From an uncultured Planctomycetales bacterium (GTDB taxonomy: Bacteria; Omnitrophota; Gorgyraeia; Gygaellales; Profunditerraquicolaceae), in NCBI GenBank assembly GCA_964603585.1, contig CAZRVK010000002.1, forward strand, positions 115,513 to 179,512: a stretch of 64,000 bases of DNA, given 5' to 3'. Shown here piece after piece: positions 1-58,566 of this stretch. A model generated the notes under the pieces. The model saw only the letters and a list, made by a program, of their open reading frames with translations. It did no database searches and had not been told where the DNA came from. The position numbers and the translations under genes were made by a program. Each line of letters opens with the position of its first letter. The first letter of the stretch is position 1.

Positions 1-10
1 AGCCGCGCCG

Positions 11-805
11 CTATATTATCCCTACTACCCTCGACCAGGCGGCACCGGTGTTCTTGATCTTTACCGGGAAACAAATCACTTTAAATCCATAATCCGGAAG
101 TTTCTCTAAATTAGCCAAACGTTCGATATGGATAAACTCCCTTTTCCTGCCATAAAAATGCGCCGGATAGAAATATTTAACATCTTTCTTTTCCATGAAG
201 TCTTTCAGCATAAATCGATAAGGCCGGTCAATCCCCATGGTATCTACCCCGAATATCTTGATCCCGCAATCCAATAAATAATCTATTGTTGAGGGATCTA
301 TCCCTGGGTAATCGGAAAAATATTTCGGAGAGCCATATAATTTATCCGCTCCAGTACGCAAAAGCACAATATCATTTTCCTTAAGGAAATAATTTATCTT
401 TTTAAGACAATTTGCGATATCTTCAGATTTAATGGTTTCATTTGGTTTTTTATGGGATAAATCCAGCTTAACCCCATCGGCATAACACCATTCAAGAGGA
501 ATTTCTTCTGCGGTTTTAGACAAACGATTCTCGGATTTCGATCCGTAATGGAATGAATAGTCCAGGTGAGTCCCGACATGTACTGGCGAATGCACTACTT
601 CCAGCGACAGGAATTCTTCATCGGGTAAATCCTCTTTTTTTACTATGCGCAATCCCAAGGCATATTGTAATTTCCCAACCCAGGTTTTCCCCATGATCAC
701 ACGGTTGAATTTCTCGACACCCGCCTTATGGCTGGTACGCTCGATTTCAACCTTATGCACTTCAAAGGCTTTTTCGTCAATGGGCAGACTTAAATCGATT
801 ATCAT
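11..805 (-). CDS. Cyclase-family protein (kynurenine formamidase-like metal-dependent hydrolase, PF04199-like); last gene of KS/ACP operon
   Basis: 264-aa ORF with an HxGTHxD-type motif (HVGTHLD) and the overall pattern of arylformamidase/putative-cyclase proteins. Its start lies 2 nt from the ACP stop. Confidence 0.6.
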   Translation of the reverse strand: MIIDLSLPIDEKAFEVHKVEIERTSHKAGVEKFNRVIMGKTWVGKLQYALGLRIVKKEDLPDEEFLSLEVVHSPVHVGTHLDYSFHYGSKSENRLSKTAEEIPLEWCYADGVKLDLSHKKPNETIKSEDIANCLKKINYFLKENDIVLLRTGADKLYGSPKYFSDYPGIDPSTIDYLLDCGIKIFGVDTMGIDRPYRFMLKDFMEKKDVKYFYPAHFYGRKREFIHIERLANLEKLPDYGFKVICFPVKIKNTGAAWSRVVGII

Positions 806-807
806 TC

Positions 808-1053
808 TTAAGCTATTTTGCTTTTAATGATACCCTCGATATCATTGATAGAGGAAAATTTGGTTACCTCCTGGGGAGAAAGTTTGGTGCCAAAGGCCTT
901 CTCCAGGGCAATCACAGATTCCACCATTTCGGTTGAATCAACCCCGATACTATCAGACAAAGAAAGGTCATCTTTTAATTCTTCGGGCTTAACCTTCAAT
1001 AAATTCACCAGGACATCTTTTATTTTACCCTTAATATCCATCATCCACCTCAC
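808..1053 (-). CDS. Acyl carrier protein
   Basis: Roughly 80 aa, with an LSDSIGVDS phosphopantetheine-attachment Ser motif and an acidic helical fold pattern. The real start may be the internal MMDIK methionine. Confidence 0.7.
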   Translation of the reverse strand: MRWMMDIKGKIKDVLVNLLKVKPEELKDDLSLSDSIGVDSTEMVESVIALEKAFGTKLSPQEVTKFSSINDIEGIIKSKIA

Positions 1054-1112
1054 TCTATTTTTTCTACTTTTTTCCTATCCACAAACCTGTCATCTGTGAA
1101 CTGTCAGACAAA

Positions 1113-2573
1113 CTAAATCTGCACCTCGCCTTTTGTAGCTGCAGCCTCCCATTTATTTATCCCGTTCATGACATCCTGAAAGCAAAGTTTTGCCAATATA
1201 TCAAAGTTGCTTTCCATGATCCGGTTGATCCTGCCGGGCTTTGAAAAGAACTCACGCATACACCAAGAACCCAGCCTCCCCAGATCTTCGGTAGTAAGAT
1301 GATCTGTCGGAATGACCGGATGCAAGAAATCCCAGGTGCTAAAATCAACTTTCTTGGTGTCGATCCAGTTTTTCTTCAAAGCAATTTTCCACATCGGGGA
1401 ATTCGGGGCCGGAGTAACATAACCTACCCACAAAACATCCGGATCAACCTGGTCGGTAAACTCAAACCGCTGTTTTATTATCTCCTCGGTATCATAATCA
1501 AAACCCATCATGATATCGGCAACTATGGCAATATCATGCTTTCTTAAAAGCTCAATGGTCTTTTTAATCTGCTCTATAGTTATACCTTTTGCGATCTTCT
1601 TCAACTCCGATTGAGTCGTCACCTCAATACCAAACACCCCCATAAACAGCCCGGTTTCTTTCATCAGCGGCAGCACGGATTCGCAATTAACCCAATCGAT
1701 CGCCCGGCCTAAAGAAACCCATTTGATATCGATCTTCTTTTGTTTCTTTAATTCGCAAAACCTCCTGACACGCGCAGGATCGACGTTAAAGTTATCATCC
1801 TGGATGACAACCACCTTAACCCCGTATTTATTCTGTAACAATTCCATCTCTTCAATTACGCGTTCCGGAGATTTAGCGCGCCATTTCAAGAAATCCGAAG
1901 GGCTCCTTGGGTCAAATTGATCCCACTCATAACAGAAGGTACAGGCCGAGGGACATCCGCGCGATGTCACCATATCCACAAACGGTTTCCAATAAGTATG
2001 CCCTACATATTTATCCATGGGGAATAAATCATATGCCGGTAACGGCAGCTTATCCAAATCTTCCATAAGAGGCTTATGCGGCCCCATCACGATCTGGCCG
2101 TCGATGCGCGAGGTAACTCCTCCCACATCCTTAAAATTCTTCTTCTTGTCGATCGCCTCGATCAAATCCCCAAAAGACTCTTCTTCCCCCATCACCACGA
2201 AATCCACCTCCGGATTCTCTTCCAGGGTATGCACAGGCATAGCAGAATACCATAAACCTCCAAGGATTATTTTTGTTTTAGGCAGTGCATGCTTGATCTT
2301 TACCGCAGCCTCTTTAAAATGCCGTAAAACTCCATATCCGCCATAACCATGCAGCTGCTCTCCCATTACCACGACATCAGGATTAATAGTCTTGACCTTC
2401 TCCACCAATTCATCCATTGGGATCTGATCGGCTTTGCCGTCGATCACTGCAACATCTTCATAGCCGCGCTGGCGGACATACGCTGCCCAATGGGCATAGA
2501 GCTGATTTGGCGAACGATGTATCCCATGTGTTGCCCATGCGCCAACTTTTGGCATAACAAACAAAATCTTCAT
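1113..2573 (-). CDS. B12-binding domain radical SAM protein
   Basis: 486 aa. The N-terminal half looks like a cobalamin-binding Rossmann domain, and the CPSACTFC sequence gives the CxxxCxxC radical SAM cluster motif. Its start overlaps the KS-beta stop by 4 nt. Confidence 0.8.
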   Translation of the reverse strand: MKILFVMPKVGAWATHGIHRSPNQLYAHWAAYVRQRGYEDVAVIDGKADQIPMDELVEKVKTINPDVVVMGEQLHGYGGYGVLRHFKEAAVKIKHALPKTKIILGGLWYSAMPVHTLEENPEVDFVVMGEEESFGDLIEAIDKKKNFKDVGGVTSRIDGQIVMGPHKPLMEDLDKLPLPAYDLFPMDKYVGHTYWKPFVDMVTSRGCPSACTFCYEWDQFDPRSPSDFLKWRAKSPERVIEEMELLQNKYGVKVVVIQDDNFNVDPARVRRFCELKKQKKIDIKWVSLGRAIDWVNCESVLPLMKETGLFMGVFGIEVTTQSELKKIAKGITIEQIKKTIELLRKHDIAIVADIMMGFDYDTEEIIKQRFEFTDQVDPDVLWVGYVTPAPNSPMWKIALKKNWIDTKKVDFSTWDFLHPVIPTDHLTTEDLGRLGSWCMREFFSKPGRINRIMESNFDILAKLCFQDVMNGINKWEAAATKGEVQI

Positions 2574-3817
2574 TTCTTTTCTCCTCTCTCAACCACTAAC
2601 ACCGAGTTAATCCCGCCCCTTCCGCGGGAAATAATTAACGCCTTATTTATTGGGTACTCCCTGGCCTGACCCCGGACATAATTCAGGCCGTTTAGATCCG
2701 GATCATCCAAATTCAAAGTCGGAGGTATCAAATTATGCTCCATGGATAGAAGGGCAATGATCAGATCCAGCGCACCGCTTGCCCCCAGAAGATTGCCAAA
2801 CATGGATTTAGGGCAAGTCGCCGGGACATCTTTGAGTTTAGGACCAAAAACCTTTCTTAAGGCATTTATTTCGCTTTGGTCCCAAATATCCACCGCTAAA
2901 CCATCCAAACTTATATAATCTATTTCCTCTTTGTTGGTTTTAGCGTCAGCCAAAGCCATTTCAATCGCGCGGGCCAATTGCTCGCCGGAGATATCCGGAT
3001 TAATCCGATCCACACCATCACAGGCCATGCCATAACCGGTAATATAGCCTAAAATATTCGCGCTGCGTGCACGTGCTCTTGATTCTGGCTCCATGACAAT
3101 GATCCCGGCTCCTTCGGCGATCACAAAACCATTACGCTTACGGTCAAATGGCCGATAAGCCTGTTCGGGATGTTCATTATCCTTGGAAAGTCCGCCGTAA
3201 GTATTACAGCACAATAAAGCGTATGGAGTAACCGGCGCTTCCATTCCTCCTCCCAGGATCATATTCAATTTCCCTTTAGCCAATGTTTTACGCGCATAGC
3301 CGAGGGCATCCGAAGAACTTGCCCGGTCAGCAACTATGGTCTTAGAAAAACCCTTGATCCCATAATAAATCGAAACCTGACCTTGAGGTGCAGCAGGAAA
3401 CCATGCAGAGGCCATATAGGGAGATACGCCTTCACGGCCCTCGATATACAAATCGCGCAGTTCTGTCTCGGCATAAAGCCAACCGCCTATAGCATTGCCT
3501 AAGAAGATCCCCACCTGGTTGGGATCTTCTTTTTTGATGTCGATCCCGGCATCGGCAAGCGCCAGCTCCGAAGCAATCAAAGCCATATGTGCAAAAGGAT
3601 CCATTTTTTTAAGCAGGCGCTCTGAAAAATTGCTGTATTTTTCCAAATCATCGATTTGCCCTGCAATATGCGAGGGGTATTTTGAAGCATCGAAACGGGT
3701 GATATTCTTTATAAACGACCTTCCGGATTTAATATTGGCCCAAAACTGCCTTCGGCCGATACCTGAAGGAGCCACAACCCCAATTCCTGTCACCGCAACC
3801 TTAGACATTTTATCCAC
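2570..3817 (-). CDS. Ketosynthase-like protein lacking the catalytic Cys/His/His (KS-beta / chain-length-factor-like)
   Basis: 415 aa with a thiolase/KS fold. The active-site Cys position reads DRASSSD, and both catalytic His positions are replaced (LDGLAVD and GNLLGASG). It overlaps the upstream KS gene by 8 nt. Confidence 0.75.
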   Translation of the reverse strand: MDKMSKVAVTGIGVVAPSGIGRRQFWANIKSGRSFIKNITRFDASKYPSHIAGQIDDLEKYSNFSERLLKKMDPFAHMALIASELALADAGIDIKKEDPNQVGIFLGNAIGGWLYAETELRDLYIEGREGVSPYMASAWFPAAPQGQVSIYYGIKGFSKTIVADRASSSDALGYARKTLAKGKLNMILGGGMEAPVTPYALLCCNTYGGLSKDNEHPEQAYRPFDRKRNGFVIAEGAGIIVMEPESRARARSANILGYITGYGMACDGVDRINPDISGEQLARAIEMALADAKTNKEEIDYISLDGLAVDIWDQSEINALRKVFGPKLKDVPATCPKSMFGNLLGASGALDLIIALLSMEHNLIPPTLNLDDPDLNGLNYVRGQAREYPINKALIISRGRGGINSVLVVERGEKK

Positions 3818-5072
3818 CGAACCTTTTTATAATTAATGCTGAATGTATCCCGGAGAAACCGCTCGAGGTTTTAATGATCATATCCACTTTTTTTTCACGT
3901 GCGACATTCGGTACATAATCCAAATCACATAACGGGTCTTTCTCCTCCTGATTGATTGTCGGAGGTAAAACATTCTTGGCAAAAATTTGAGAACAAACGG
4001 TTAATTCTACGGCATTAGCCGCCGCCAAAGGATGGCCGATCATAGACTTTAAGGAACTGGCGGGAAGTTTATACGCATAATCACCCCAAACCATTTTATA
4101 GGCTGCAGTCTCGAAAATATCATTCATTTTTGTAGAAGATCCGTGCGCATTGATATAATCTATATCATTGGGCCTGACTCCGGCGTCTTTGATCGCCAAA
4201 TTGATGCAATTGGCCATTGCCGTCCCATCGGCAGGCAAATCTGTCATATGAAATGCGTTGCAACTGGTGCCAAAACCAATCACCTCTGCGTAAATATGCG
4301 CATTACGTTTTAATGCATGATTTAGTTCTTCAAGAATCAGGATCCCCGCGCCTTCCGATAGAACAAAACCGTTCCGTTTTTTATCAAATGGCCGCGAAGC
4401 CTTCTCCGGGGATTCATTATTCACTCCTAAAACGCTGACTACGTCAAAGGCGCCAAAAGTGATAGGGGTTATCGGGGCCTCTGCCGCGCCACAGATCATG
4501 ACATCCTGCCCTCCATCCTGGATTACCTCCAAACCAAAACCCAAAGAATCGGTACCTGCGGTGCATCCGGTAGAAATAGTATTACAAACCCCTTTTAAAC
4601 CATAGCGGGCATTGACTTCAATGGATGGGGTATTAAACATCGCCGCATCATAAAGATCGGGCCTGACTTTCGCCGGATTGATCGGTTTTTTACCGTCATC
4701 GGTAACTAAAGCAAATTCCTCTTCCATGTATTTGGTCCCGCAAATCGCATTTGCCAGACAAACCCCGATACGTTCTACATCCTCCTTGGAAAAATCTATT
4801 TTACTGTCTTTAACCGCCATATCCGCAGCCACTACCCCGAACTGCACGTAACGGTCCATACGCACCGCTTCATCATGCGTCAGGCCTAATTTAAAGGGAT
4901 CAAAATCGCGGACTTCCGCGGCAATTTTAGTATGAAAAACCGATACATCGAAACTATCGACTAATCTTACCCCGGACTTCCCGCTGGCCATTGCCTGCCA
5001 CACATTATCCTTACCGATACCATTTGGAGAAACTACCCCTAACCCCGTGATCACTACACGCCTTTTATTCAT
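3810..5072 (-). CDS. Beta-ketoacyl-ACP synthase (FabF/KS-alpha-like, catalytically intact)
   Basis: Carries the active-site Cys (ISTGCTAGTDS) and both His motifs (AHGSSTKMND and GHPLAAANAVE). I placed the start at MNKRRVVITGLG, which has an AAAGGA RBS 9 nt upstream. The ORF track's longer N-terminus (to 5117) is probably spurious. Confidence 0.85.
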   Translation of the reverse strand: MNKRRVVITGLGVVSPNGIGKDNVWQAMASGKSGVRLVDSFDVSVFHTKIAAEVRDFDPFKLGLTHDEAVRMDRYVQFGVVAADMAVKDSKIDFSKEDVERIGVCLANAICGTKYMEEEFALVTDDGKKPINPAKVRPDLYDAAMFNTPSIEVNARYGLKGVCNTISTGCTAGTDSLGFGLEVIQDGGQDVMICGAAEAPITPITFGAFDVVSVLGVNNESPEKASRPFDKKRNGFVLSEGAGILILEELNHALKRNAHIYAEVIGFGTSCNAFHMTDLPADGTAMANCINLAIKDAGVRPNDIDYINAHGSSTKMNDIFETAAYKMVWGDYAYKLPASSLKSMIGHPLAAANAVELTVCSQIFAKNVLPPTINQEEKDPLCDLDYVPNVAREKKVDMIIKTSSGFSGIHSALIIKRFGG

Positions 5073-5131
5073 AAATAATCCTTTTTGAACTGTCACTTTA
5101 CAGCTTTTACCACACACTCACCATTAATTAA

Positions 5132-5725
5132 CTATTTATTCCCCTCTTCTACCCGTGTCACCTTAAACACAATATTCCCGCCATCCGGACAGGTGACCGT
5201 ATCAATCGCATTTGGATCAGGCATAAAGAAGAATTTTGCTCCAAAATTCAAAGCAAACAATGCCGGGAAAGCAGTATGGAATGCCGCGCCACAAAACCCG
5301 GGGATACATTTTAACCCGGTAGTCTCCCACTTATCTCCTACTTTATACCCATAGCTGCATTTACCTTGAGCTTTTACTACCTCAACGATCATTTTCTTAG
5401 GATTCGGGCCTTTGAAATCAGGATCCTTAGGCACTACCTCAACTTTTCCCTGCTTATCCAGGATCTCGGCCTTAAATTCCAGTTTTCCTCCATCGGGACA
5501 GGTCACAAGAAGAGAGCGTTGATTATCACGAAAAGGGAATTTCGCGCCAAAACTTAAAGCATAGATCACATTGAACAATGCATGCGCTAATCCCAGGCAA
5601 AAATGCTTCGGGGGATGAGTAAAATCATCCAGGACCAATTCATCGCCGATCTTATACCCATGGTAACAAACGCCCTCGACTTTTGTAACCGTAAGCTTTA
5701 ATTTCGGAAAAGGGGTATCGACCAT
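5132..5725 (-). CDS. Tandem-repeat Cys/His-rich protein (TIGR04076-like, function unknown)
   Basis: 197 aa built from two internally duplicated ~90-aa halves. Each half carries C-x-[YH]-G-Y-K-[IV]-G-D, C-x-G-x-A-[HF], FGAKF and TCPDGG motifs. Confidence 0.5.
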   Translation of the reverse strand: MVDTPFPKLKLTVTKVEGVCYHGYKIGDELVLDDFTHPPKHFCLGLAHALFNVIYALSFGAKFPFRDNQRSLLVTCPDGGKLEFKAEILDKQGKVEVVPKDPDFKGPNPKKMIVEVVKAQGKCSYGYKVGDKWETTGLKCIPGFCGAAFHTAFPALFALNFGAKFFFMPDPNAIDTVTCPDGGNIVFKVTRVEEGNK

Positions 5726-5726
5726 T

Positions 5727-6731
5727 TTAATTTACAAACTCCTCGGTTTCTTCGATTAACTCTTCGTGGCTCAAGAATTTATTGGTATTCTCAACCCGGT
5801 GCACCAACTCGACCATTTTTTCATTTAATGGCGCGTTTAAATTATGTTCTTTCGCCAAAACCACGAATTCACCGTTTATATAATCTATCTCGGAAGAACG
5901 CCCGCGCTTAATACTCTGTAAAATCGAGCCATATAAAGGTTCTTTGCTCAAATTAGTCATGATCCCGGATAGAACCTTCGCCGCTTCAAGAGTAGGCATC
6001 CCGGTAATATTCGTCACCCTCTCCAGAGGAAAATCCGGTAAAGAGACCAGATCTATACCACAGGCTTCCACAACTTGCAAACCTTCTTTCCAAAGGCAAA
6101 TACTCAACCGGCTAATGCCTAAATCGGAAAATGCCTCCTGCATGCTCTGGCCTAATACCGCAGGGATACAATTATTGGCGTTTACAAAGATCTTCAAATA
6201 TTTCATCCCCCGGATATCCTCTGCAACAATCGTGGGGAATATTTTATTTAATTCATTCGACACTTCTACGACCCGCGAGTCGTTTTTCCCAAAGGCCTTT
6301 CCAATGATCCAGCTTCCTTCAAAATTATGGATCACTTTCCCAGGATCCAAATAAGTAGCTCCAAACATAACGATACTGGAGATTATATTATCCCGAGGGA
6401 TATATTTAGCAGCCAGGGCATCGGATCTTATTCCATTCTGCGTGGTTAAAACCAATGCTCCTTTTAACAGATCCCGGTTATTCTCCAGCGCGCGTTCAAG
6501 ATCCTGCGTCTTTGTGGCCAAAATCGCCAGATCCGGCTGGATTTTTAATTCTACATCAATATCGATGGAAACCCTTGAACTGCCTCTTGGCCCAGTAAGT
6601 TCAATACCGTTTTCTTTAATTGCGCTAACTGAATCGATATTACCCACAAGCGATACATCTGTGTTCTTTAATTTAAGGTATGCGGCTACTAGATTACCGA
6701 TAGCCCCAGCACCGATAACCACGATTTTCAT
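5727..6731 (-). CDS. 2-dehydropantoate 2-reductase family (ApbA/PanE-like) NAD(P)-dependent reductase
   Basis: MKIVVIGAGAIGNLVAAYL Rossmann GxGxxG at the N-terminus and a 334-aa length typical of ketopantoate reductase-like proteins. Confidence 0.7.
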   Translation of the reverse strand: MKIVVIGAGAIGNLVAAYLKLKNTDVSLVGNIDSVSAIKENGIELTGPRGSSRVSIDIDVELKIQPDLAILATKTQDLERALENNRDLLKGALVLTTQNGIRSDALAAKYIPRDNIISSIVMFGATYLDPGKVIHNFEGSWIIGKAFGKNDSRVVEVSNELNKIFPTIVAEDIRGMKYLKIFVNANNCIPAVLGQSMQEAFSDLGISRLSICLWKEGLQVVEACGIDLVSLPDFPLERVTNITGMPTLEAAKVLSGIMTNLSKEPLYGSILQSIKRGRSSEIDYINGEFVVLAKEHNLNAPLNEKMVELVHRVENTNKFLSHEELIEETEEFVN

Positions 6732-7006
6732 TATTTAAAATTAGTGTTATTCTTAGGGAATCCGTACTTTTTATAATCAAAATCGCTTTGATCCAAAAGA
6801 CGGATCATCATGCTATAAAAAGGCGTGGGGACATCGGAGAAAAAAGCGTTGATCACATCCTGCTCTTCCACGGCCGGAGCCTTCCTTAAGGCAGCATTTT
6901 CTTCCGCGCGCTTAACAACCACTTCCTCGGTAATATGCCGGTGAAAAACCGGGATTTTCGCAATTAAAACATTGAATCTTTCCTTAACCGTAGGATCCCA
7001 ATCCAT
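6731..7006 (-). CDS. Small protein with a possible PCP_red-like (protochlorophyllide reductase B C-terminal-like) domain; first gene of the operon
   Basis: 91 aa. The segment AKIPVFHRHITEEVVVKRAEENAALRK resembles the PF08369 pattern as I remember it. Its stop overlaps the reductase start codon. Confidence 0.35.
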   Translation of the reverse strand: MDWDPTVKERFNVLIAKIPVFHRHITEEVVVKRAEENAALRKAPAVEEQDVINAFFSDVPTPFYSMMIRLLDQSDFDYKKYGFPKNNTNFK

Positions 7007-7139
7007 TTTTACCCCCGCTAACTGAATATAGTAAAATTTTACTATTCAAATTTTACATATTATACCTGAAGACTACTATTTATGTCAAGAAGATTTTATA
7101 AAAGATGTAAAGCGCTTTTGAATATTGATGTTACGAACT

Positions 7140-7634
7140 TTACCGGTAATTGCAGAAGCCAAGAGGCAAAGAGAAATCCAGTGTTTTTAGATGTATGATC
7201 ACAGCCTGTAAATCATCCTTTTTCGGAGCAGAAACCCTAAGTTTATCCCCTTCGATCTGGGTCTGGACTTTAAGACCCAAACCTTTAATAATCCCGGTCA
7301 ATTCCTTGGCTTTTTCTTTATCTATGCCGATAGATAACTCTGCCAACTGGCGTAAAGTCCCTTCAAACGCCTTTTCCGGATCTTTGAACTTTAATGATTT
7401 AAGGGAAATCCCCCTTTTAGCCAAACGCGTAGCCAGGATATCCTTTAAAGCGCGTAATTTGAAGTCATCATCAGCAATAATGGTGATGCTTTTTTTATCC
7501 CGGTCATATTCCAACGATGACTTGCTATCCTTAAAGTCATACCGCTGGGCCAGCTCTTTTTTGGCTTGATTGACCGCATTATCCACTTCCTGCAAGTCAA
7601 CCTCGGAAACTATATCAAAGGAAAAGTTAGCCAT
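7140..7634 (-). CDS. yajQ: YajQ family cyclic di-GMP-binding protein (UPF0234)
   Basis: 164 aa with the N-terminus MANFSFDIVSEVDLQEVDNAVNQAKKELAQRYDFK, which is characteristic of YajQ. Confidence 0.9.
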   Translation of the reverse strand: MANFSFDIVSEVDLQEVDNAVNQAKKELAQRYDFKDSKSSLEYDRDKKSITIIADDDFKLRALKDILATRLAKRGISLKSLKFKDPEKAFEGTLRQLAELSIGIDKEKAKELTGIIKGLGLKVQTQIEGDKLRVSAPKKDDLQAVIIHLKTLDFSLPLGFCNYR

Positions 7635-7660
7635 GGAGACATTTAACCTCTGCGAACGGA

Positions 7661-8203
7661 TTATTTCAAATAAGCCTTAATGATCTTCTGTTCAGTAACC
7701 GGCTTATCCTGCGCACCAACCGGGGTATTTTCGATCTTTTCTACCACATCATACCCGGCAACGACTTCGCCAAAAATGGTATGGCGCATATTCAACCAGG
7801 GAGTTTTGGCGGTAGTGATAAAAAACTGGCTGCCATTCGTACCGGGCCCGGCATTGGCCATTGCCAATAATCCGGTTTTATCAAATTTTAAAACCGGAGT
7901 AACTTCATCTTCAAAAGGCTGGCCCCAGATAGAATCCCCTCCCATGCCTGTGCCGGTAGGATCCCCGCCCTGGATCATAAAACCCTTGATCACCCGGTGA
8001 AAAATGATCCCATTGTAATAACCTTTTTCTACGAGCTTCGTAAAGTTTTCGCAGGTTTTAGGGGCAAGATCAGGGAAAAGTTTTATTTCTATAGCGCCTT
8101 GCGTCGTCTCTAAGATCACGTTTTTGTTACTCATATTAAGCTCCTCTCCATATACACTGCTGACAAAAATTAAAGCAAGAAATACCCCCAGTAATTGTTT
8201 CAT
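7661..8203 (-). CDS. Peptidyl-prolyl cis-trans isomerase, cyclophilin type, secreted
   Basis: N-terminal signal peptide, then the [15 protein letters not shown]...GTGMGG cyclophilin core. Confidence 0.9.
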
Positions 8204-8231
8204 CTCTCCTCCGCATTTAATAGATAAAAGC

Positions 8232-8486
8232 CTACGATGATAATTCTACAACCTTTATTTTAAGGCCAGAAACCTTCTTTAAGGCGGCAGAAAAACCCTT
8301 CTTCTCCTTATCTGAACCCACTATCTCTAAGATTATCAATCCGGTATCCGAACATTTATCTAAGACACCGTCGTGAATACCCAGACGGGTTTTCACAATA
8401 CAGCCGAAATCGGTAAGCACCTTCTGGAAATTTACTGCCGCGCTGCGCCTTTTTTTCAAAACCGCCACTACAACCGTTCTTTTCAT
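8232..8486 (-). CDS. Hypothetical small protein (ACT/PII-like?)
   Basis: 84-aa ORF with good coding context. I cannot place it in a family. Confidence 0.3.
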
Positions 8487-8529
8487 CTTAACCCCCTCCT
8501 CGACAATTCCGCGTTTCTGCTACTTGGAT

Positions 8530-8895
8530 TTAAAAAAGCGCCTCGGAAGATATACTTTTATAATACCCCATTATTTTCTCTAAGGCTTTTGCCGTCATCA
8601 CCGTTAATACCACCGTCAGAATAACAGCTATCGCAGTAATAATTATTTTACTTTTGGCGCTAAAACGCGGGTTGCTCCACAACAAAGGAAGGGCAAAAGG
8701 CCCGATCGCCAGAAAAGAAATAATCAGGGTGGAGTTTCTTTGATACCATTTAACCTGTCGAGGTAAGTGCGGCACAGCCCCGACAAGGAATTCATTACAG
8801 TAGCGGCACTTAACGGCGTCCTCCTGTAGTGATTCCGCACAAAACGGGCAGTTTTTCATAAAGCTTAGTATACTTACCGGATAAATCCCGGTCAA
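8530..8895 (-). CDS. Zinc-ribbon domain membrane protein
   Basis: CPFC...CRYC zinc ribbon at the N-terminus followed by 2 to 3 hydrophobic helices. Confidence 0.5.
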   Translation of the reverse strand: MTGIYPVSILSFMKNCPFCAESLQEDAVKCRYCNEFLVGAVPHLPRQVKWYQRNSTLIISFLAIGPFALPLLWSNPRFSAKSKIIITAIAVILTVVLTVMTAKALEKIMGYYKSISSEALF

Positions 8896-8946
8896 GGATT
8901 ATTATATCTGCATTGCCAATTGCGTTCTTTGGCCATTAGGCGCAGG

Positions 8947-9243
8947 TCATGTAACCTCTTCGATCGGCAAGATAAAAGCCTTGATCCCTTCTTTGCCTAA
9001 TTTCTTTCTTAACTCTTTTATCCCGGACACTAATTTAGCGGCTTCAGGGGAAGTGCATGAGATGTAAAGCAGATTATTCCTGCCCGGCCAGATATCATTC
9101 CCCAGGTGCGTACCGGAACTCTGCCCCTTGCCATAAGTACCAACGATCTTCGTGTAGTTAGTTATGGCCAAATTAGATAAAAGCTCCATAGCTTCTATAT
9201 CAATTGCTTCGTTATAAGAGATCATAACCATTTTTAGGTTCAT
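8947..9243 (-). CDS. Small PII-like/DUF3240-like protein encoded downstream of the RND pump
   Basis: 98 aa. Its start overlaps the RND permease stop by 4 nt, and this position and size are typical of czcA/acrB-associated PII-like proteins. Confidence 0.35.
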   Translation of the reverse strand: MNLKMVMISYNEAIDIEAMELLSNLAITNYTKIVGTYGKGQSSGTHLGNDIWPGRNNLLYISCTSPEAAKLVSGIKELRKKLGKEGIKAFILPIEEVT

Positions 9244-12200
9244 TTTTTTGTCCCCTGATTCTTAATTTGTACGCTGCTTAAATCTTTCCCCTTCTGTTTA
9301 CGGTGGAATATAGCATACATCGTCGGCACAAAGAACATGGTGATCAAAGTCGACACGGTCAACCCCCCGATCATAGTGATCCCCAGAGGCTGCCAGGTCT
9401 CTGAACCTTCTCCCCGGGATAAAGCCAATGGCAAAAGCCCAACCAGTGTGGTAATAGTAGTCATCAGCACAGGCCTTAACCTCTCTCTGCCTCCTACAGT
9501 AACGGCTTCGTACATGGAAAACCCTCTTGCGCGTAAGATATGAATATAACTCACCAAAACTATGGCATTATTAACCACGATCCCCATCAACATCACTATG
9601 CCTAAGAAAGTCACTACGCTCAAGGTCGTACCTGTAGTAACAAAACCCAAAATAACCCCGATAAAAGTGAATGGTATCGCAAACATGATGATAAACGGAT
9701 CTAATAATGACTCGAATTGTGCCGCCATCACCATATAAACCAACGCGATCCCCATGATCAATAAAAGCGTGAGATCCTTAAAAGCCTTGCGTTGTTCTTC
9801 CGCCTCTCCACCCAGATTAAATGATATATCCGCGGGAACAGCTATTTTATCCAGTTCTTTCTTGAAATCCTCAACGATCTTTCCTGATGAACGCTTATAA
9901 GCGTTGCACTCAACCTTTACGACTCGTTCACGGTTCTTGCGGTCGATCTCCTGCGGTCCGGGAGATTCGTAGATTTTTGCGATATTGGCTAACTGGACCG
10001 GTTTTCTAACTACCCCTTTTATCTGTGCCAATTCGGCTAATGCGCCAAAAGAAGTTTTATCTTCCGGTAATGGTGGCAGAATTGATAAATTCTCGATATC
10101 CTCAATCTTTGCCCGGGAGGTATCTTCCAGCCGGACATAAATATCGTAGGTTTTACCTTTTTCCCGGTATTTAGTGGCGGTTGTCCCTTGAATAAAAGTT
10201 TTCAGGGTATCAGCGATAGTGTTCATATCCAAACCCAAAGCAGAGGCTTTTACCCTGTCTACTTCGATTTTCAGTTCCGGACGATTGAATTCACGGGAAA
10301 TGCTTACATCTACTGCTCCAGGGACATTCTCGAGTATTGCCTTTACCTTTTGGGCCAAAGCATCGGTTTCTTCAAAAGAATGGCCAATAATCTCTAATTG
10401 TATGCTTTTTCCCCCTCCTCCGGTAATTAACCTGCCGATCGGGTTCCCGGAAGAAACATCGGTTTTAATCACTCCCGGGATCAACTGTATATTGCGCCTC
10501 AACGCTTGAGCTACTTCGGAAACAGAACGCTTTCTTTCTGTTTTTACTACGAGTTTTACCCCGGCTGTGACAATATGCGTACCCGAGACATTCCCAAAAG
10601 CCCTGCCGATGCCGGGGATATTACCGCTTCGGACGTAGAAATACCTGGCTTCAGGGACTTCCTTATTAAACATCTCTTCGATCCTTTGCGCTACTTTATC
10701 GGTCTCTTCAACCCGCGTGCCGATAGGCAGGTTTACGGTAATCCGGACATCACCGGTGTCTTCTTCAGGTATAAATTCATTGCCCACAAATTTGGTCAGG
10801 GCTAAAGTAACGATAAAGGCGGCGAAAAACCCGATAACAATGACATTCTTATGCCTAAGTGCCCAGCCCAAGGAACGCCCGTAAAAAGCTTCCATCGCGC
10901 TAAACCACCGCTCGGACAAGTCATAAAATTTACTACTTTTCTTTTGCGTGCCATTTTGCGCAAAATTCAGCTTAAGCCATTTAGAGCACAACATTGGACT
11001 GAAAGTCGCTGCGGTAAAAAGCGAGGCTACCAAAGTCACAATAACAATTACCGCCAGTTCCCCGAATATTACCCCTACCACTCCCGGGATAAAAAGCATC
11101 GGCATAAATACTACTACCGTAGTTAAAGTAGAAGCGGCTACAGCCAAAAACATTTCAGAGGCTCCAAAGATCGAGGCTTCTTGCGGGCGTTCTCCTTTTT
11201 CGAAATGCCGGTAAACATTATCCACTATTACGATCGCGTTATCTACGACCATGCCGGAAGCAATGGCCAAAGAAGAAAGGCTGATAGTGTTAATAGTCTT
11301 GCCGCTTAAAAAAAGATAGATAAAACTGATTAACAGGGAAAAAGGAATAGTCAATGCGATGATCATGCTCGGGGCGAATTGACGCAAGAAAAACCATACC
11401 ACCAGGATCACCAGCAGAACCGCTAACCATACCGATGATGAAAGCGATTTCAACGAAACAATGATATCCTCCGAAGTATCGAATATCTTGATCATCTTGA
11501 CATCAGAAGGAAGTGTCTTTTTTAACTCATTCAGCCTTTTATGAACACGCCGCGCAACCTCCACAGCATTAGTGCCGCTTTGTTTCTGTATCATCATCGT
11601 CAATCCCGGCTTTCGATCAATGCGCACCAGTGTGGTTATTTCTTTAAAACCATCCTCGATCCTGGCCACATCCTTGAGATAGACAAACCCCTGGTCACGC
11701 CTGCCTAAAATAACTGTATTGATCTCTTCCGGAGTAGCAAATTCTCCGGGCAGACGGATCAAATAATCCGTAAGCCCCGATTTAATACTGCCTACGGGCT
11801 GGGTCACATTCTCCTGCTTCAATACATTCTGAATATCGAGTATGGAAAAACCATAACCTTCCAACCGTTGTTTATCAACCCAAATATTGATTTGCCGCTC
11901 CAATCCCCCCCCCTGGAACTGGACTGTGCCGACTCCTGGAAGCTGGCGCAGGGCGTCGCCGATCCTTTTATCGATCAAATCATAAAGTTCAGTATAGGTT
12001 TGTTCGGCGGTAAAACCGATAAAAAGGATCGGGATATTGGAAGTGTTAAATTTAAAAATAAACGGGTTCTCCATCTCCTCGGGGATATCCGGCAGGAGGC
12101 GTTTGGCCAATTCAATCCGATCACGGATATCATTGGAGGCTTCATCCAAATTAGTCCCCCAAACAAATTTTAAGGAAATCACCGATACCCCCTCGGAAGA

Positions 12201-12449
12201 AGAGGAGGTGATCTTTTCCAATCCCGGGGTAGTGGCGAGCTGATTCTCCAATTCCTCTGTCACTTTGATCTCAACATCCTCCGGACTTGCTCCGGGATAA
12301 GTAGAAATCACGCTGATAACCGGGGGTTCAATCTCGGGGAAGCTATCTATACCTAACCGCGATAGGCTATAAAAGGCCAAAAGTACGATCGAAGCAAAGA
12401 TCATTAAATTAGTAACCGGCCTTTTTACGCCAAATTCCGGTAAATTCAT
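9240..12449 (-). CDS. Efflux RND transporter permease subunit (AcrB/CzcA family)
   Basis: 1069 aa with 12 TM segments and two large periplasmic loops. The HAE-RND signature regions are present. Confidence 0.95.
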   Translation of the reverse strand: MNLPEFGVKRPVTNLMIFASIVLLAFYSLSRLGIDSFPEIEPPVISVISTYPGASPEDVEIKVTEELENQLATTPGLEKITSSSSEGVSVISLKFVWGTNLDEASNDIRDRIELAKRLLPDIPEEMENPFIFKFNTSNIPILFIGFTAEQTYTELYDLIDKRIGDALRQLPGVGTVQFQGGGLERQINIWVDKQRLEGYGFSILDIQNVLKQENVTQPVGSIKSGLTDYLIRLPGEFATPEEINTVILGRRDQGFVYLKDVARIEDGFKEITTLVRIDRKPGLTMMIQKQSGTNAVEVARRVHKRLNELKKTLPSDVKMIKIFDTSEDIIVSLKSLSSSVWLAVLLVILVVWFFLRQFAPSMIIALTIPFSLLISFIYLFLSGKTINTISLSSLAIASGMVVDNAIVIVDNVYRHFEKGERPQEASIFGASEMFLAVAASTLTTVVVFMPMLFIPGVVGVIFGELAVIVIVTLVASLFTAATFSPMLCSKWLKLNFAQNGTQKKSSKFYDLSERWFSAMEAFYGRSLGWALRHKNVIVIGFFAAFIVTLALTKFVGNEFIPEEDTGDVRITVNLPIGTRVEETDKVAQRIEEMFNKEVPEARYFYVRSGNIPGIGRAFGNVSGTHIVTAGVKLVVKTERKRSVSEVAQALRRNIQLIPGVIKTDVSSGNPIGRLITGGGGKSIQLEIIGHSFEETDALAQKVKAILENVPGAVDVSISREFNRPELKIEVDRVKASALGLDMNTIADTLKTFIQGTTATKYREKGKTYDIYVRLEDTSRAKIEDIENLSILPPLPEDKTSFGALAELAQIKGVVRKPVQLANIAKIYESPGPQEIDRKNRERVVKVECNAYKRSSGKIVEDFKKELDKIAVPADISFNLGGEAEEQRKAFKDLTLLLIMGIALVYMVMAAQFESLLDPFIIMFAIPFTFIGVILGFVTTGTTLSVVTFLGIVMLMGIVVNNAIVLVSYIHILRARGFSMYEAVTVGGRERLRPVLMTTITTLVGLLPLALSRGEGSETWQPLGITMIGGLTVSTLITMFFVPTMYAIFHRKQKGKDLSSVQIKNQGTKK

Positions 12450-13351
12450 TTTAAACCATTCTCCTGTTCAATGCTGACGACGGCATTATCATAAAGTTTT
12501 TGTTGGCCCATGATCACAACCATATCCCCGGATTTTACACCTTTTAGAACCTCCAAATACCCTCCCTGGCGAATACCCGCAACAACGTTACGCAAAACCG
12601 CCTTTTGGTTCTCTATTACATAAACAAAATTATTGGGTTCTTTCCCCAGTATAGCTTCTTTTAAAACTACAGGTATATTCTTATGCTGCTGCAAAATTAA
12701 ACTGACCCTGGCAAACATCCCAGATTTTAATTTCCCCCCCTGATTATCCACAGTAATCTGGATTGGGGCGGACCGGGTAGATAAATCTACTACCGGACTG
12801 ATTTTCGTTACTTTCCCCGGAAACTCATCCTGCGGGTAAGCATCCACGGTGATCATGGCCTCCTGGCCCAACAAAACCCGCGATAAATACTTTTCCGGGA
12901 CATCCAAATCTATTTTGACCTTCTCCATATTCACCACCAAAGCTATCGATGTATCAGGTCCGACAAGCTGCCCGATATCCGCGTAAAACCTCCCCACAAT
13001 CCCGCTCAAAGGGCTTTCTACCGGAGCCTTTTCAAATTTCAGCCCTACCTCATCACGGTCAATATAAGCAATGGCTTCGCCCTTCTTCACTACTGCCCCG
13101 TCCTCCTTAGACTTTTCGATCACCTTTCCGCTGACCTTAGGATAAACTATTGCTTCATCCTGGGCCTTGATATTGCCCACATATTCGATCACCTCATTTA
13201 AATCGCTTAAAACTATTTTGACTGCTTTAACAGGGATTATCTCCTGCGGCTTTTTCGTCTCTTGTTTATTTTGACAACCTAATAAAGGCGTAAAGAGCAA
13301 GGATACGCATATAAATATTGAGATTTGTTTTGGCTTGAAATTTGACATCAA
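12446..13351 (-). CDS. Efflux RND periplasmic adaptor (membrane fusion protein), lipoprotein
   Basis: Lipobox LLGC, then biotinyl-lipoyl and beta-barrel MFP domains. It overlaps the RND gene by 4 nt. Confidence 0.85.
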   Translation of the reverse strand: MMSNFKPKQISIFICVSLLFTPLLGCQNKQETKKPQEIIPVKAVKIVLSDLNEVIEYVGNIKAQDEAIVYPKVSGKVIEKSKEDGAVVKKGEAIAYIDRDEVGLKFEKAPVESPLSGIVGRFYADIGQLVGPDTSIALVVNMEKVKIDLDVPEKYLSRVLLGQEAMITVDAYPQDEFPGKVTKISPVVDLSTRSAPIQITVDNQGGKLKSGMFARVSLILQQHKNIPVVLKEAILGKEPNNFVYVIENQKAVLRNVVAGIRQGGYLEVLKGVKSGDMVVIMGQQKLYDNAVVSIEQENGLK

Positions 13352-14646
13352 AATCCCCCTGTGGCTTTATCGAAATTGGCTTTGGCAATAATATAATCGT
13401 AGACAGCCTGTTTTTTATTGAACATAGACACATTATACTGCAAATCCGCATCATTGAAATCAAGAAAACTTGCAATCCCCTGGTCTTTTTTTTGCTGAAA
13501 CACCGCCAGATTATCCTTATAAAACTTGATATTGCTTTCTGCGGTCTTTAACCCCGAAATAGCGTTTTTTAGACCCAGATAGGAATTCTTCAATTCTAAA
13601 GAAATATCTTTAACCGCTTTTTCTTTCAAAAGCTGTGCTTCCTTAAGATCAATGATCGCCTGCTCTACTTTGGCTTTAGTCGCCCAGCCATCGAATACCG
13701 GCCAAGAAAAAGTAAAACCCAGGGTATTATAATCATTCCAGGCTCGGCTGGAGCCGCTAGCGGTAGCGCCGGTAATAGTACCGGCGCTGGCGATTGCAGC
13801 GCTGTTCCGGCTGAAATACTCCCAGGAGGCAAATATCGTCGGGCGATTGCCTGCCTTGGCGATTTCGACTGCCTTTTTTGCCTGAATAGATTGGGCCTCA
13901 TACTGCCGGATTTCCGGACGGGTCCTCATTGCTTTCAAAAAAGCCTCATCATAGGCTATTTCCGCCGACTCATACTCAAGGGAAGAATCCGACCTTATTT
14001 TAACCTCATCATCAAGGTATAACAAATTCCTAATCAAAGCCTCCGCCGCAGTAAGCTGATTTAAAGAAATGTCATACGCCTGGCTGACACTGCTCAAAGA
14101 TTCCTCTATTTTCAAGATCTCTGAAGCCGAGGCTTGACCAGATTCATATCGCGCCTTTAAAAAGTTCAAATGTTCTTGAGTATTATCCAGTATCGCCTTA
14201 TTTAAGACAACAAAATTCTTGGTAAGAATAAAGGTATAAAATGCTTTTTTTACAGTCAATACCGTTTCTAATTTTGCCTGGTCGAGCAATGCCTGCGCCA
14301 CTTCCATCCCGGACTGGTTATATTTGATCGTGTTGATCAGGCTACCACCCTGGTAAAGTATCTGCCTTACCGTCGTCTGGGTAGTGCTCACGGCCAGGTC
14401 TTTCCTGGTCAATCCTTTAGTATCTGTCCAGCCTCCCATGAAATCCAATGAAGGCCAAAGGGCCCCGTACGATTCCGCGATCTTTTTCTTTGCCTTATTT
14501 ACATCCTCGGCTTTAAGCAACACATCCCGGTTATCCCGAAGCGCAATAGCAACCGCCTCATCTAAATTCAGGTTAACCTCTCCCGCTCTTAAAGGAAACG
14601 GCAGCATAAAGAAAATGAAGCAAAATACCACAGCTAAATTATTCAT
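13348..14646 (-). CDS. TolC-family outer membrane efflux protein
   Basis: 432 aa with a signal peptide and the two-repeat alpha/beta architecture of outer membrane factors. Confidence 0.85.
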   Translation of the reverse strand: MNNLAVVFCFIFFMLPFPLRAGEVNLNLDEAVAIALRDNRDVLLKAEDVNKAKKKIAESYGALWPSLDFMGGWTDTKGLTRKDLAVSTTQTTVRQILYQGGSLINTIKYNQSGMEVAQALLDQAKLETVLTVKKAFYTFILTKNFVVLNKAILDNTQEHLNFLKARYESGQASASEILKIEESLSSVSQAYDISLNQLTAAEALIRNLLYLDDEVKIRSDSSLEYESAEIAYDEAFLKAMRTRPEIRQYEAQSIQAKKAVEIAKAGNRPTIFASWEYFSRNSAAIASAGTITGATASGSSRAWNDYNTLGFTFSWPVFDGWATKAKVEQAIIDLKEAQLLKEKAVKDISLELKNSYLGLKNAISGLKTAESNIKFYKDNLAVFQQKKDQGIASFLDFNDADLQYNVSMFNKKQAVYDYIIAKANFDKATGGF

Positions 14647-15098
14647 TTGTTATCCAAATTATCTTCGAGAAGAATATCTTTTATCCTAGTTAAAATCCGC
14701 AGATACTGTCTTCGATCTTCCGCCGATATAGCGCTGAATATCCTAATCAGCATCCGGCGCTTGTGCTGGTTAATCTCCTTAACCAAGGTATTGCCCTCTG
14801 CAGTCAATCTAACTTTTATGATCCGCCTATCATTATTGTCAAAAACCCGCACCAGATACCCATCCCTGACCAGGCGGTCTACGATCCCGGTCATAGCCGC
14901 AGTGGTTACATTCATAAAATGCGCCAAATCCGACATATTAGACTGGCCGTTAGAATGTAAAAAACCCAGGATCAGGAATTGCGGCAGGGTGATCTTGCCC
15001 TTGAATTCCTGCATATGCCGGCGGGAGAATTCTTTCATGATCACCGGCATTATCTCATTCATTTTATCGGCGAATTCCGATAAGGAAGATTCAGACAA
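14643..15098 (-). CDS. MarR family transcriptional regulator
   Basis: Winged-helix sequence LAHFMNVTTAAMTGIVDRLVRDGYLVRVFDNNDRR. It is the first gene of the efflux operon. Confidence 0.85.
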   Translation of the reverse strand: MSESSLSEFADKMNEIMPVIMKEFSRRHMQEFKGKITLPQFLILGFLHSNGQSNMSDLAHFMNVTTAAMTGIVDRLVRDGYLVRVFDNNDRRIIKVRLTAEGNTLVKEINQHKRRMLIRIFSAISAEDRRQYLRILTRIKDILLEDNLDNK

Positions 15099-15192
15099 TA
15101 TTCAACCTCCTAAATAGTTAATGTTGTTAACTATAAATCATATTAAGTTTATCCCCAAAAAGCAAGAAAGTCAAGGAAAATATGCGGATAGG

Positions 15193-15453
15193 TCAAACGG
15201 CTGGATGGATGAAAAGTTTACGCAGGCTTAAAAACCATACGAACCCAAAGAATACCGAGAAAACTATAAGAAATACCCCCATAATCCTGGTATTTCGTAA
15301 TTCTTTAGGCATCGAGATTGGCTCAACCCGCCAATTAATTTGCGCATAGAAGATTCTTTGCATTTCTATCGCCAGTGCAGGAAAAATAACCAAAAAACAT
15401 CCAAAAGATAAATTCAATAAACCGACTATAATAATGCCAATAGAGACTATCAT
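15193..15453 (-). CDS. Small membrane protein (PadR-associated)
   Basis: 86 aa with two TM helices. Its start overlaps the PadR stop. Confidence 0.3.
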   Translation of the reverse strand: MIVSIGIIIVGLLNLSFGCFLVIFPALAIEMQRIFYAQINWRVEPISMPKELRNTRIMGVFLIVFSVFFGFVWFLSLRKLFIHPAV

Positions 15454-15965
15454 AGGGTTTTTATCAGCTCGGAAAGGAATTTTGCCTCTGTTTCTACCAT
15501 TTGCAAATTATGTTCTAAAATACTGACGCCGGAAGACGGTTTATCTTTTTTCAAATTACTCACCATTTGAGTCAGGCCAACAGTAAGTTTTTCCATCACA
15601 CGCAGGCGCGCGCGCAGCTTATGTTTAGCCAGATCCGGATCAATATAATTCAAGAAATACAGACTAAGATCGAGGCTGAATTCCGGACGCTTGAAATTGA
15701 GAAAACTCTGGGTGAGCAAATCCTGAAAACGCAACTGGCCTTTTTCAGTAAGTTCGTAAACAAATCGTTCTGGACGGCGATTGGGTTTATTCTTACGCTT
15801 TACAACCATGCCTTTTTTTTCCAGGACCCTCAAAGGATAATAAACTGACTTTAATTCTACCCCGGCAAATAAAGACAAAATCTCACGGATCTTTTTTTTG
15901 ATTTCATATCCGTGCTTGGGACTTTCCTTTAATAACCCTAACAAGATTATTTCGTGTTCGATCAT
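15450..15965 (-). CDS. PadR family transcriptional regulator
   Basis: [19 protein letters not shown]...[13 protein letters not shown] winged-helix PadR signature. Confidence 0.75.
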
Positions 15966-16909: not shown

Positions 16910-16968
16910 AAGTTAATCCACAGTTAACAGATCACAGTCCATAGATATTCGATCCGCCTTTTGATTAA

Positions 16969-54109: not shown

Positions 54110-54110
54110 A

Positions 54111-58553: not shown

Positions 58554-58566
58554 TTATCATGTCCTT

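Follow-up and report, generated by a model that had tools for sequence, protein, structure and literature searches.

The locus considered here lies at the start of a 64,000-nucleotide (nt) stretch, referred to as the window (contig CAZRVK010000002.1 of assembly GCA_964603585.1, an uncultured bacterium placed in the phylum Omnitrophota), whose numbering is used throughout. It is a minus-strand operon, with its 5′ end near position 7006 and its 3′ side at the window start, and it encodes two ketosynthase (KS) proteins, an acyl carrier protein (ACP), a putative cyclase, and several enzymes of other families, a set that resembles a polyketide synthase (PKS) of type II. Families were assigned to the open reading frames (ORFs) of the window from Pfam and NCBIfam profile matches judged against the model cutoffs, and the genes are collected in Table 1. 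The region 11–7006 contains eight long ORFs, all on the minus strand, with no competing plus-strand genes. All the genes listed for it in the initial annotation are present, with strong matches to the families proposed there except in the case of the 91-amino-acid protein.

The KS-alpha, KS-beta, and ACP starts labelled in Table 1 as gene calls come from an identical public contig. With these revised starts, five of the seven gene junctions are overlapping or at most 2 nt apart, such as the stop of the 91-amino-acid gene overlapping the start of the ketopantoate-reductase-like (KPR) gene (TAATG), the start of the radical S-adenosylmethionine (rSAM) gene overlapping the KS-beta stop (ATGA), and the 1-nt gap between KS-alpha and KS-beta. 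The remaining two junctions measure 59 and 71 nt, and the translational coupling originally claimed for the whole set thus applies to the five junctions and not to these two. The candidate promoter is the sole perfect consensus match within positions 1–7700 and precedes the first gene start (7006) by about 50 nt.

Table 1. Genes of the operon and candidate regulatory features, in window coordinates
Feature	Coordinates	Strand	Evidence or remark
PadR-family regulator, possible regulator of the operon	15450..15965	minus	8.4 kb upstream of the operon
Candidate sigma-70 promoter, TTGACA-18 nt-TATAAT	7059..7088	minus	12/12 positions; consensus match alone
91-amino-acid protein, first gene of the operon	6731..7006	minus	weak DUF2621 match, 23.9 bits, below cutoff
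ApbA/PanE (ketopantoate-reductase-like, KPR) NAD(P)H oxidoreductase	5727..6731	minus	PF02558 and PF08546 (1.6e-29, 9.6e-19)
Tandem-duplicated TIGR04076 protein (2xTIGR04076)	5132..5725	minus	96 bits vs cutoff 33, two repeats
KS-alpha, intact ketosynthase	ORF 3810..5117; start 5072 by gene call	minus	KS match, 1e-134
KS-beta, chain-length-factor-like partner	ORF 2570..3817; start 3808 by gene call	minus	KS match, 1.6e-104
B12-binding radical SAM enzyme (B12-rSAM)	1113..2573	minus	B12-binding and Radical_SAM domains, both above cutoff
Acyl carrier protein	ORF 808..1053; start 1041 by gene call	minus	PF00550, 4.4e-10
PF04199 "putative cyclase"	11..805	minus	Pfam 100.5 bits, 1.3e-28

The KS-alpha protein has a complete catalytic triad, Cys185/His325/His362 (numbering of the ORF starting at 5117), found in the motifs STGCTAG, NAHGSS, and MIGHPL. 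As the initial annotation had it, this is an intact ketosynthase, and the three residues line up with the catalytic residues of the actinorhodin KS and AntD. The best matches in the PDB are the actinorhodin KS (1TQY_A, 369 bits), AntD (6SMO_B, 359 bits), and FabF (354 bits), and the active-site motif TGCTAGTDS is similar to that of type II PKS KS-alpha proteins.

In the KS-beta partner, all three catalytic residues are replaced, and this earlier claim likewise holds on alignment to FabF and to the actinorhodin chain-length factor (CLF). The Cys position is occupied by Arg165 (motif A-D164-R165-A-S), not by Asp, and the two His positions by Asp305 and Asn342, the three replacements being invariant among 26 orthologues. 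Its alignment to the actinorhodin CLF (264 bits) spans the full length, and Asp305 matches the pattern of that CLF, which also has Asp at the second catalytic position (the first His position). Arg165 stands opposite Gln161 of the actinorhodin CLF, which we take to be the residue tied to decarboxylative acetate priming. In a search of 1.8 billion protein representatives clustered at 50%, every one of the nearest full-length relatives of KS-beta lacks the Cys. They include a protein shared by the two species that produce clostrubin, Clostridium beijerinckii and C. puniceum (42% identity, A-D-R-A-S kept, probably ClrB), and others from Ktedonobacter, Archangium, and Paenibacillus, with the D-R motif present in the Clostridium, Ktedonobacter, and Archangium relatives. 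The Cys-less relatives of KS-beta and the top rank of the actinorhodin KS among the KS-alpha matches agree with the proposal of a KS/CLF heterodimer with a dedicated ACP of the type II PKS kind.

A housekeeping FabF identity of the pair is rejected on the model cutoff, the scores against the fabF equivalog model TIGR03150 (455.6 bits for KS-alpha and 361 bits for KS-beta) not reaching 493.75. Moreover, neither the operon nor the 64-kb window as a whole nor the flanking regions of related loci showed any genes of the fabD/fabG/fabZ/fabA/fabI type, in line with the original statement that this is not a housekeeping fatty-acid synthase (FAS) locus. A cispentacin-type AmcF/AmcG pair is likewise rejected, both KS proteins giving partial matches of 152–166 bits to the AmcF model NF058662, whose cutoff is 325. 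More distant KS/CLF pairs (33–37% identity, L136–L161) come without any accessory gene and were put aside as a different system.

The ACP bears its phosphopantetheine Ser in a G-V-D-S40-T motif and scores below every housekeeping AcpP equivalog cutoff. The PF04199 protein contains the motif HxGTHxDxxxH at residues 76–86 and, among solved structures, has distant similarity to isatin hydrolase only. The family is presumably that of the OxyN-type polyketide cyclases, and, as judged from its position and family, the protein would fit an OxyN-type second-ring cyclase.

The window edge is located 10 nt past the 3′ end of this cyclase gene, and both of the independent assemblies publicly available for this strain (SRR15237810 and SRR15237811; loci L082 and L084) end inside the gene or at most 31 nt past it, so that the downstream half of the operon had to be reconstructed from relatives. 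These come from a scan of GTDB (one genome per species), which returned 283 matching stretches, the best 80 of which were used for the locus comparisons. In every locus long enough, the gene order is small91–KPR–2xTIGR04076–KS-alpha–KS-beta–B12-rSAM–ACP–PF04199 cyclase–SRPBCC. The SRPBCC gene (148 amino acids) directly follows the cyclase gene in essentially all relatives with enough flank, thus falling outside the window, and beyond it there are often an MFS gene (missing from many loci), a short-chain dehydrogenase/reductase (SDR), a variable secreted CBM_11-like protein, a protein of about 135 amino acids, and an Amidohydro_2 protein. In the closest relative (L002), the SRPBCC protein matches the TcmN/WhiE-type aromatase/cyclases 3TVR, 2KF2, and 2RER at E values of about 1e-23, and it is predicted to be a genuine member of this type. 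For the SDR of the relatives, the best match is clavaldehyde dehydrogenase (114 bits), and ActKR is not among its five matches at E ≤ 1e-25. By this comparison, the eight genes would constitute the 5′ half of an operon of about 17–19 genes that is cut by the window start. The initial annotation had reported no ketoreductase and no match to the classical aromatic PKS. We attribute this to an edge artefact, because the window stops 10 nt past the cyclase gene while the relatives continue with the TcmN/WhiE cyclase, the SDR, and Amidohydro_2. It can be mentioned here that the window and both same-strain assemblies stop in common at the cyclase gene, where the relatives run straight into the SRPBCC gene, which suggests a repeat or a strain-variable junction at this point of the genome.

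The set KS–CLF–ACP–TcmN–OxyN is the published "ancestral" architecture of the clostrubin, dendrubin, AQ-256, and pyxidicycline systems (PMC7693217). The corresponding clr, den, ant, and pcy clusters share with the present one the KS-alpha, the CLF, the ACP, and the TcmN-type and PF04199 cyclases, and their hosts are anaerobic or Gram-negative. The core architecture predicted here matches that of these ancestral aromatic type II PKSs. We therefore consider it probable that the operon is an "ancestral-type" non-actinomycete aromatic type II PKS, that its product is a lipophilic aromatic polyketide, and that a nucleoside-processing module attached to it in the relatives (see below) recycles 5′-deoxyadenosine. 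As to the product class named earlier, a specialised lipid or polyketide, the aromatic type II PKS set supports the polyketide, and the lipid part has no direct support.

The likeness to the known systems has its limits. Compared to the clr, den, ant, and pcy clusters, the Omnitrophota cluster adds the B12-rSAM, 2xTIGR04076, KPR, and Amidohydro_2 proteins and the in-operon nucleoside module, and it is phylum-wide where those are sporadic; the CLF of Clostridium, despite its common A-D-R-A-S at the former Cys site, has only about 42% identity to KS-beta. The actinorhodin minimal PKS (1TQY) provides the best solved match to KS-alpha and shares with KS-beta the Asp at the first His position, but the Omnitrophota CLF has Arg165 in place of Gln161, the SDR is not ActKR-like, and the aromatase is a mono-domain TcmN-type protein, whereas the act cluster uses the di-domain ActVII aromatase.

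Instead of an aromatic PKS, the operon might encode a specialised system for fatty acids or lipids, of the ladderane kind or based on another pair of FabF-like proteins. Both KS proteins score high on FabF models, and the ladderane-associated clusters of anammox bacteria, likewise from anaerobes and with FabF-like KS pairs, are also characterised by a B12-rSAM gene beside FabF-like genes. In addition, antiSMASH-based surveys report "ladderane" clusters in Omnitrophota metagenome-assembled genomes (MAGs) (PMC9902471), anammox FabF homologues are reported to form a KS/CLF-like heterodimer (bioRxiv 10.64898/2026.05.19.726425), and the SCP2 and FadD-like proteins of the relatives suggest lipid handling. 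However, the B12-rSAM scores 82.5 bits against the ladderane-type model TIGR04072, whose cutoff is 360, so that a ladderane-type enzyme is ruled out, and the TcmN/WhiE aromatase/cyclase and the PF04199 cyclase are conserved in the operon. Since, furthermore, KS-alpha stays under the fabF equivalog cutoff and the FabG/FabZ/FabA/FabI/FabD-type genes, or a dehydratase or reductase set for reduced chains, are not seen in the operon, window, or relatives' flanks, we judge such a lipid system very unlikely.

We give still less weight to a non-aromatic type II PKS product, i.e., a polyene or aryl-polyene, an ishigamide-like compound, or a cispentacin-like ring. KS/CLF-like heterodimers make such compounds too, both KS proteins give partial AmcF matches, and MMPL and LolA-like genes, similar to the transport genes that aryl-polyene loci carry, flank a divergent version of the cluster (L090 type, see below). 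Nevertheless, the AmcF cutoff is not reached, the core contains none of the dehydratase, thioesterase, and adenylation set typical of aryl-polyene and ishigamide clusters, and two aromatic-polyketide-type cyclases are conserved.

Turning to the tailoring genes, the B12-rSAM protein has the CxxxCxxC motif at residues 207–214. Its highest-scoring families are BchE (TIGR02026, 220 bits against a cutoff of 481) and HpnJ (166 bits against 578), ahead of the class B methylase models, and its closest solved structure is AprD4, with 55 bits only. BchE, the anaerobic Mg-protoporphyrin monomethyl ester cyclase, and HpnJ are O2-independent radical enzymes and not simple methylases. The present enzyme shares with them the B12-binding and radical SAM architecture, but its scores are far below their cutoffs, which rules out BchE itself although it is the best-scoring model, and the context is a PKS and not a tetrapyrrole or hopanoid pathway. 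In divergent versions of the cluster, the rSAM gene is found elsewhere in the cluster, sometimes in two copies.

The 2xTIGR04076 protein has, in each repeat, three invariant Cys residues plus His, the invariant positions being C20, H22, C43, H48, and C76 and, in the second repeat, C123, C140, C145, H150, and C179. Its AlphaFold (AF2) model, with a predicted local distance difference test score (pLDDT) of 66, gave no convincing fold match. The KPR protein scores 168.9 bits against the TIGR00745 subfamily (cutoff 141) and reaches no equivalog cutoff. The KPR and 91-amino-acid genes accompany the KS genes in all versions, the former always adjoining the PKS genes and the latter keeping the same position, with protein identities of 59–81% in the GTDB loci and 40–54% in the divergent metagenome versions. 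The L114 orthologue of the 91-amino-acid protein has a weak PCP_red match (E 0.014). As far as we have found, a tailoring set composed of a BchE/HpnJ-scoring B12-rSAM, a 2xTIGR04076 protein, and a KPR has no described counterpart.

Two loci depart from the common gene set in other ways. In the divergent locus L090 ("Deltaproteobacteria" label; 40–7007 and 13161–17342), the SDR and MFS genes are replaced by two aldehyde:ferredoxin oxidoreductases, a flavin mononucleotide (FMN) reductase, and an amine-oxidase-like flavoprotein, and the flanking MMPL and LolA-like genes, of a lipid-export kind, hint that the product there is a cell-envelope lipid. In one Omnitrophota MAG, an HNH endonuclease gene is located between the PF04199 cyclase and B12-rSAM genes (L169, 18270–19088), a sign of a mobile-element insertion within the cluster.

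The nucleoside-processing module of the relatives consists of a DeoD/Udp-like nucleoside phosphorylase, an MtnA-like isomerase, a class II aldolase that is always fused to an SCP2 lipid-binding domain, and an aldehyde dehydrogenase, joined by a FadD-like AMP-ligase where the flanks reach far enough. None of it is in the window, so that the initial annotation could not include it, and it is the most unusual feature of the operon. The phosphorylase lies inside the locus in 30 of the 31 loci with full 10-kb flanks. In most genomes the PKS genes come first and the module lies downstream of them, while in others it lies upstream; at least three arrangements occur in total. In L002, the module genes are contiguous or overlapping, both with the Amidohydro_2 gene and among themselves. 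The isomerase reaches the eIF-2B_rel subfamily cutoff only, and the phosphorylase and aldolase of the relatives reach none; the former is a divergent DeoD/Udp-like protein with a weak HpnG match (49.6 bits). The best models for the aldehyde dehydrogenase are betaine-aldehyde (BADH) and phenylacetaldehyde (StyD) dehydrogenase, and the ligase, at 472 bits against a FadD cutoff of 476, is not of the acetate-CoA-ligase type. In four loci (L114 1792–2247, L090 19123–19602, L170 9483–9926, and L171 9519–10004), a second short IF-2B-family ORF of 147–161 amino acids follows the isomerase gene, meaning that the gene is split or that there is an additional, conserved subunit. A Cys-rich protein of 230 amino acids in the L171 module was tested as a relocated TIGR04076 protein and is not one.

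Phosphorylase, isomerase, and aldolase make up an established route for 5′-deoxyadenosine and methylthioadenosine (MTA), the dihydroxyacetone phosphate (DHAP) shunt (PMC6079011). A kinase can stand in for the phosphorylase (MtnP) in this shunt. The order of the three enzyme families is unchanged in the relatives, where an aldehyde dehydrogenase comes next, as it does in the fluoroacetate pathway. They differ from the shunt in the PKS-operon setting, in the SCP2 fusion and the FadD-like ligase, and in the divergent phosphorylase below all cutoffs. The operonic coupling of a PKS to a 5′-deoxyadenosine/MTA module with an SCP2-fused aldolase and an acyl ligase is, as far as found, undescribed. The simplest explanation is that the attached module is a built-in removal of the inhibitory by-product of the rSAM enzyme.

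The SCP2 fusion, the aldehyde dehydrogenase, the ligase, and the Arg for Gln exchange in the CLF leave room, on the other hand, for a biosynthetic module. In such a scheme, a 5′-substituted 5′-deoxyadenosine (MTA or an adenosylated lipid or polyketide) would be converted to DHAP and an aldehyde R-CH2-CHO, and the aldehyde dehydrogenase and FadD-like ligase would turn the latter into the PKS starter. The module shares the operon and has stayed next to the PKS genes in spite of at least three rearrangements, the SCP2 fusion is constant, the aldehyde dehydrogenase scores best on the two models named above, the ligase is FadD-like and not of the acetate type, and the CLF is without the acetate-priming Gln. 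The weak HpnG match of the phosphorylase can be added, radical SAM adenosylation having precedents in the HpnH/HpnG and MqnE/MqnB systems. However, adenosylating rSAM enzymes of the HpnH and MqnE kind are not known to carry a B12 domain, which the cluster enzyme has. In the AQ-256 cluster, a CoA ligase acts in the activation of the ACP and not in priming, which also speaks against a priming role here. A precedent for the aldehyde chemistry does exist in the conversion of 5′-fluorodeoxyadenosine to fluoroacetaldehyde (cited in PMC6079011), yet the ordinary DHAP shunt has precisely these three core enzymes, and the genome has many other rSAM enzymes that also need 5′-deoxyadenosine removal. A biosynthetic module of this kind is thus unlikely. 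Alternatively, the ligase could prime the PKS with a fatty acid, giving a phenolic lipid.

Several observations weigh against the assignment to an aromatic PKS with a 5′-deoxyadenosine-recycling module. The KS-alpha score against FabF is nearly equal to that against the actinorhodin KS, and the protein exceeds the cutoff of one looser NCBIfam FabF subfamily (NF005589); KS-beta scores slightly higher against FabF structures (278 bits) than against the actinorhodin CLF, and the canonical CLF Gln is missing from it. The cluster SDR is not ActKR-like, and the downstream half is seen in relatives alone and not in this strain. The chemistry of the B12-rSAM is a guess, because no equivalog cutoff is reached, and TIGR04076 is an orphan family. 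The SCP2 fusion, the StyD/BADH-like aldehyde dehydrogenase, and the FadD-like ligase are a poor fit to a simple acetaldehyde salvage.

The cluster is kept in hundreds of uncultured Omnitrophota species. KS-beta homologues at 78–84% identity number well over a hundred, and the named ones come from Candidatus Omnitrophota MAGs. The best 80 loci are 75–82% identical and nearly all labelled Omnitrophota, and the few labelled "uncultured Planctomycetales", Patescibacteria, or Pseudomonadota contain this locus as well. A metagenome scan gave divergent versions with 54–65% KS-beta identity and the same gene set; the named proteins on some of these contigs are again from Omnitrophota, and one group is labelled "Deltaproteobacteria". 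Across species, the identities are about 88% for the rSAM protein, 84% for 2xTIGR04076, 80% for KS-alpha, 78% for KS-beta, and 77% for the cyclase, whereas the adjacent efflux-pump proteins are 54–70% identical. Relative to L002, the synonymous sites are saturated, and the ratio of nonsynonymous to synonymous substitution rates (dN/dS), computable for three genes only, is at most 0.08, with 0.065 for KS-beta. The core is thus under strong purifying selection, the "dead" KS-beta included, and its conservation is housekeeping-like for a cluster of the secondary-metabolite type. One MAG (CAZOGI01, contigs 1 and 4; L067 and L069) contains the whole locus twice, with equal identity and spacing for every gene tested, for which duplication in co-assembly is a likelier explanation than a genuine second copy.

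In the literature, Ca. Omnitrophica is listed among 14 phyla with KS-CLF pairs in a bulk catalogue of type II PKS CLFs, without analysis (PMC10132072), and the main genomic survey of Omnitrophota does not mention the cluster (PMC10066038). Apart from this catalogue entry, we found no description of the operon in the literature on TIGR04076, Omnitrophota polyketides, Velamenicoccus, and the DHAP shunt. The same survey describes many Omnitrophota as ultra-small, several classes as anaerobic, and quinone pathways as patchy across the phylum.

That the cluster is retained throughout the phylum speaks for a product with a physiological role and not for an occasional antibiotic. With the same chemistry, the product could also be an ordinary secreted antibiotic or pigment and not a core physiological molecule, as is the case for clostrubin and the dendrubins (PMC7693217). 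An MFS exporter is present inside many versions, and in this lineage a resistance-nodulation-division (RND) pump and a MarR regulator stand beside the operon; however, many loci have no MFS gene, and the RND block is next to the operon in no more than about 12. The 283 matching stretches in a one-genome-per-species collection and the housekeeping-like conservation with saturated synonymous divergence are unusual for dispensable clusters. We therefore regard the secreted metabolite as possible but lean against it.

A more specific proposal would combine a core physiological lipophilic aromatic polyketide, e.g., a non-isoprenoid membrane quinone or redox lipid matured independently of O2, with a nucleoside module that acts as a biosynthetic arm supplying a SAM-derived starter or side chain and with a B12-rSAM in place of oxygenases. 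This combination as a whole we consider rather unlikely, and the quinone in particular is speculation.

For the aromatic type II PKS with by-product recycling, the following sequence of steps can be envisaged. The KS-alpha/KS-beta pair would extend an ACP-bound chain with malonyl units delivered by the transacylase of the cell's own FAS. Priming may proceed from a non-acetate unit, because Arg replaces the decarboxylating Gln of the CLF and the cluster is accompanied by a FadD-like ligase. The TcmN-type and PF04199 cyclases would then fold the unreduced poly-β-ketone into a polycyclic phenol, which Amidohydro_2 may modify through decarboxylation or lactone opening. The B12-rSAM is suggested to perform an O2-independent radical step, either a C-methylation or a BchE/HpnJ-like oxidation or ring rearrangement, while KPR and the SDR would carry out carbonyl reductions. 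The inhibitory 5′-deoxyadenosine released by the radical enzyme would be removed and recycled by the phosphorylase, isomerase, aldolase, and aldehyde dehydrogenase.

As a rule, aromatic type II PKSs occur sporadically in actinomycetes and make antibiotics or pigments. The probable one described here is kept gene for gene, under strong purifying selection, by hundreds of species belonging to an uncultured phylum. Such phylum-wide retention implies a function that is important to the physiology or to the host-dependent lifestyle of the Omnitrophota. With a B12-rSAM, a TIGR04076 protein, and a KPR-like reductase instead of oxygenases, the cluster would be a natural system for O2-free tailoring of aromatic polyketides, and the orphan TIGR04076 family gains a defined genomic context. 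The nucleoside module would represent either the salvage of a by-product integrated in a biosynthetic operon or a novel route by which SAM-derived carbon enters a polyketide.

As to the surroundings of the operon, a PadR gene is located directly upstream of the 91-amino-acid gene in about 30 related loci, and a PadR gene heads the array of ligase, salvage, and PKS genes in L169, L170, and L171. By analogy, it is possible that the PadR gene of the window (Table 1) regulates the operon and has been displaced by an inserted RND-pump block. The intervening region (7140–15965, including PadR) encodes YajQ, a cyclophilin-type peptidyl-prolyl isomerase, the RND pump with its membrane fusion and outer membrane partners, and the MarR regulator, and the gene of a 98-amino-acid P-II-like protein (8947–9243) overlaps the RND pump gene (9240–12449). 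The RND block looks like a lineage-specific insertion, given the small number of related loci in which it adjoins the operon.

Two further features of the window involve rSAM proteins. A Radical_SAM and LAM_C protein, lysine-2,3-aminomutase-like, is encoded at 44698–45921. A separate minus-strand cluster at 50177–64000 is rich in rSAM genes and also contains an ATP-binding cassette transporter, two family-2 glycosyltransferases, and a 407-amino-acid protein without a Pfam family on record. Its rSAM set includes a second B12-binding rSAM protein (52757–54109), a 786-amino-acid double-rSAM protein (60868–63231), and, the latter counted in, four or five further rSAM/SPASM proteins. This cluster may be a system for peptides that are made on ribosomes and modified post-translationally (RiPPs) or for glycan modification.

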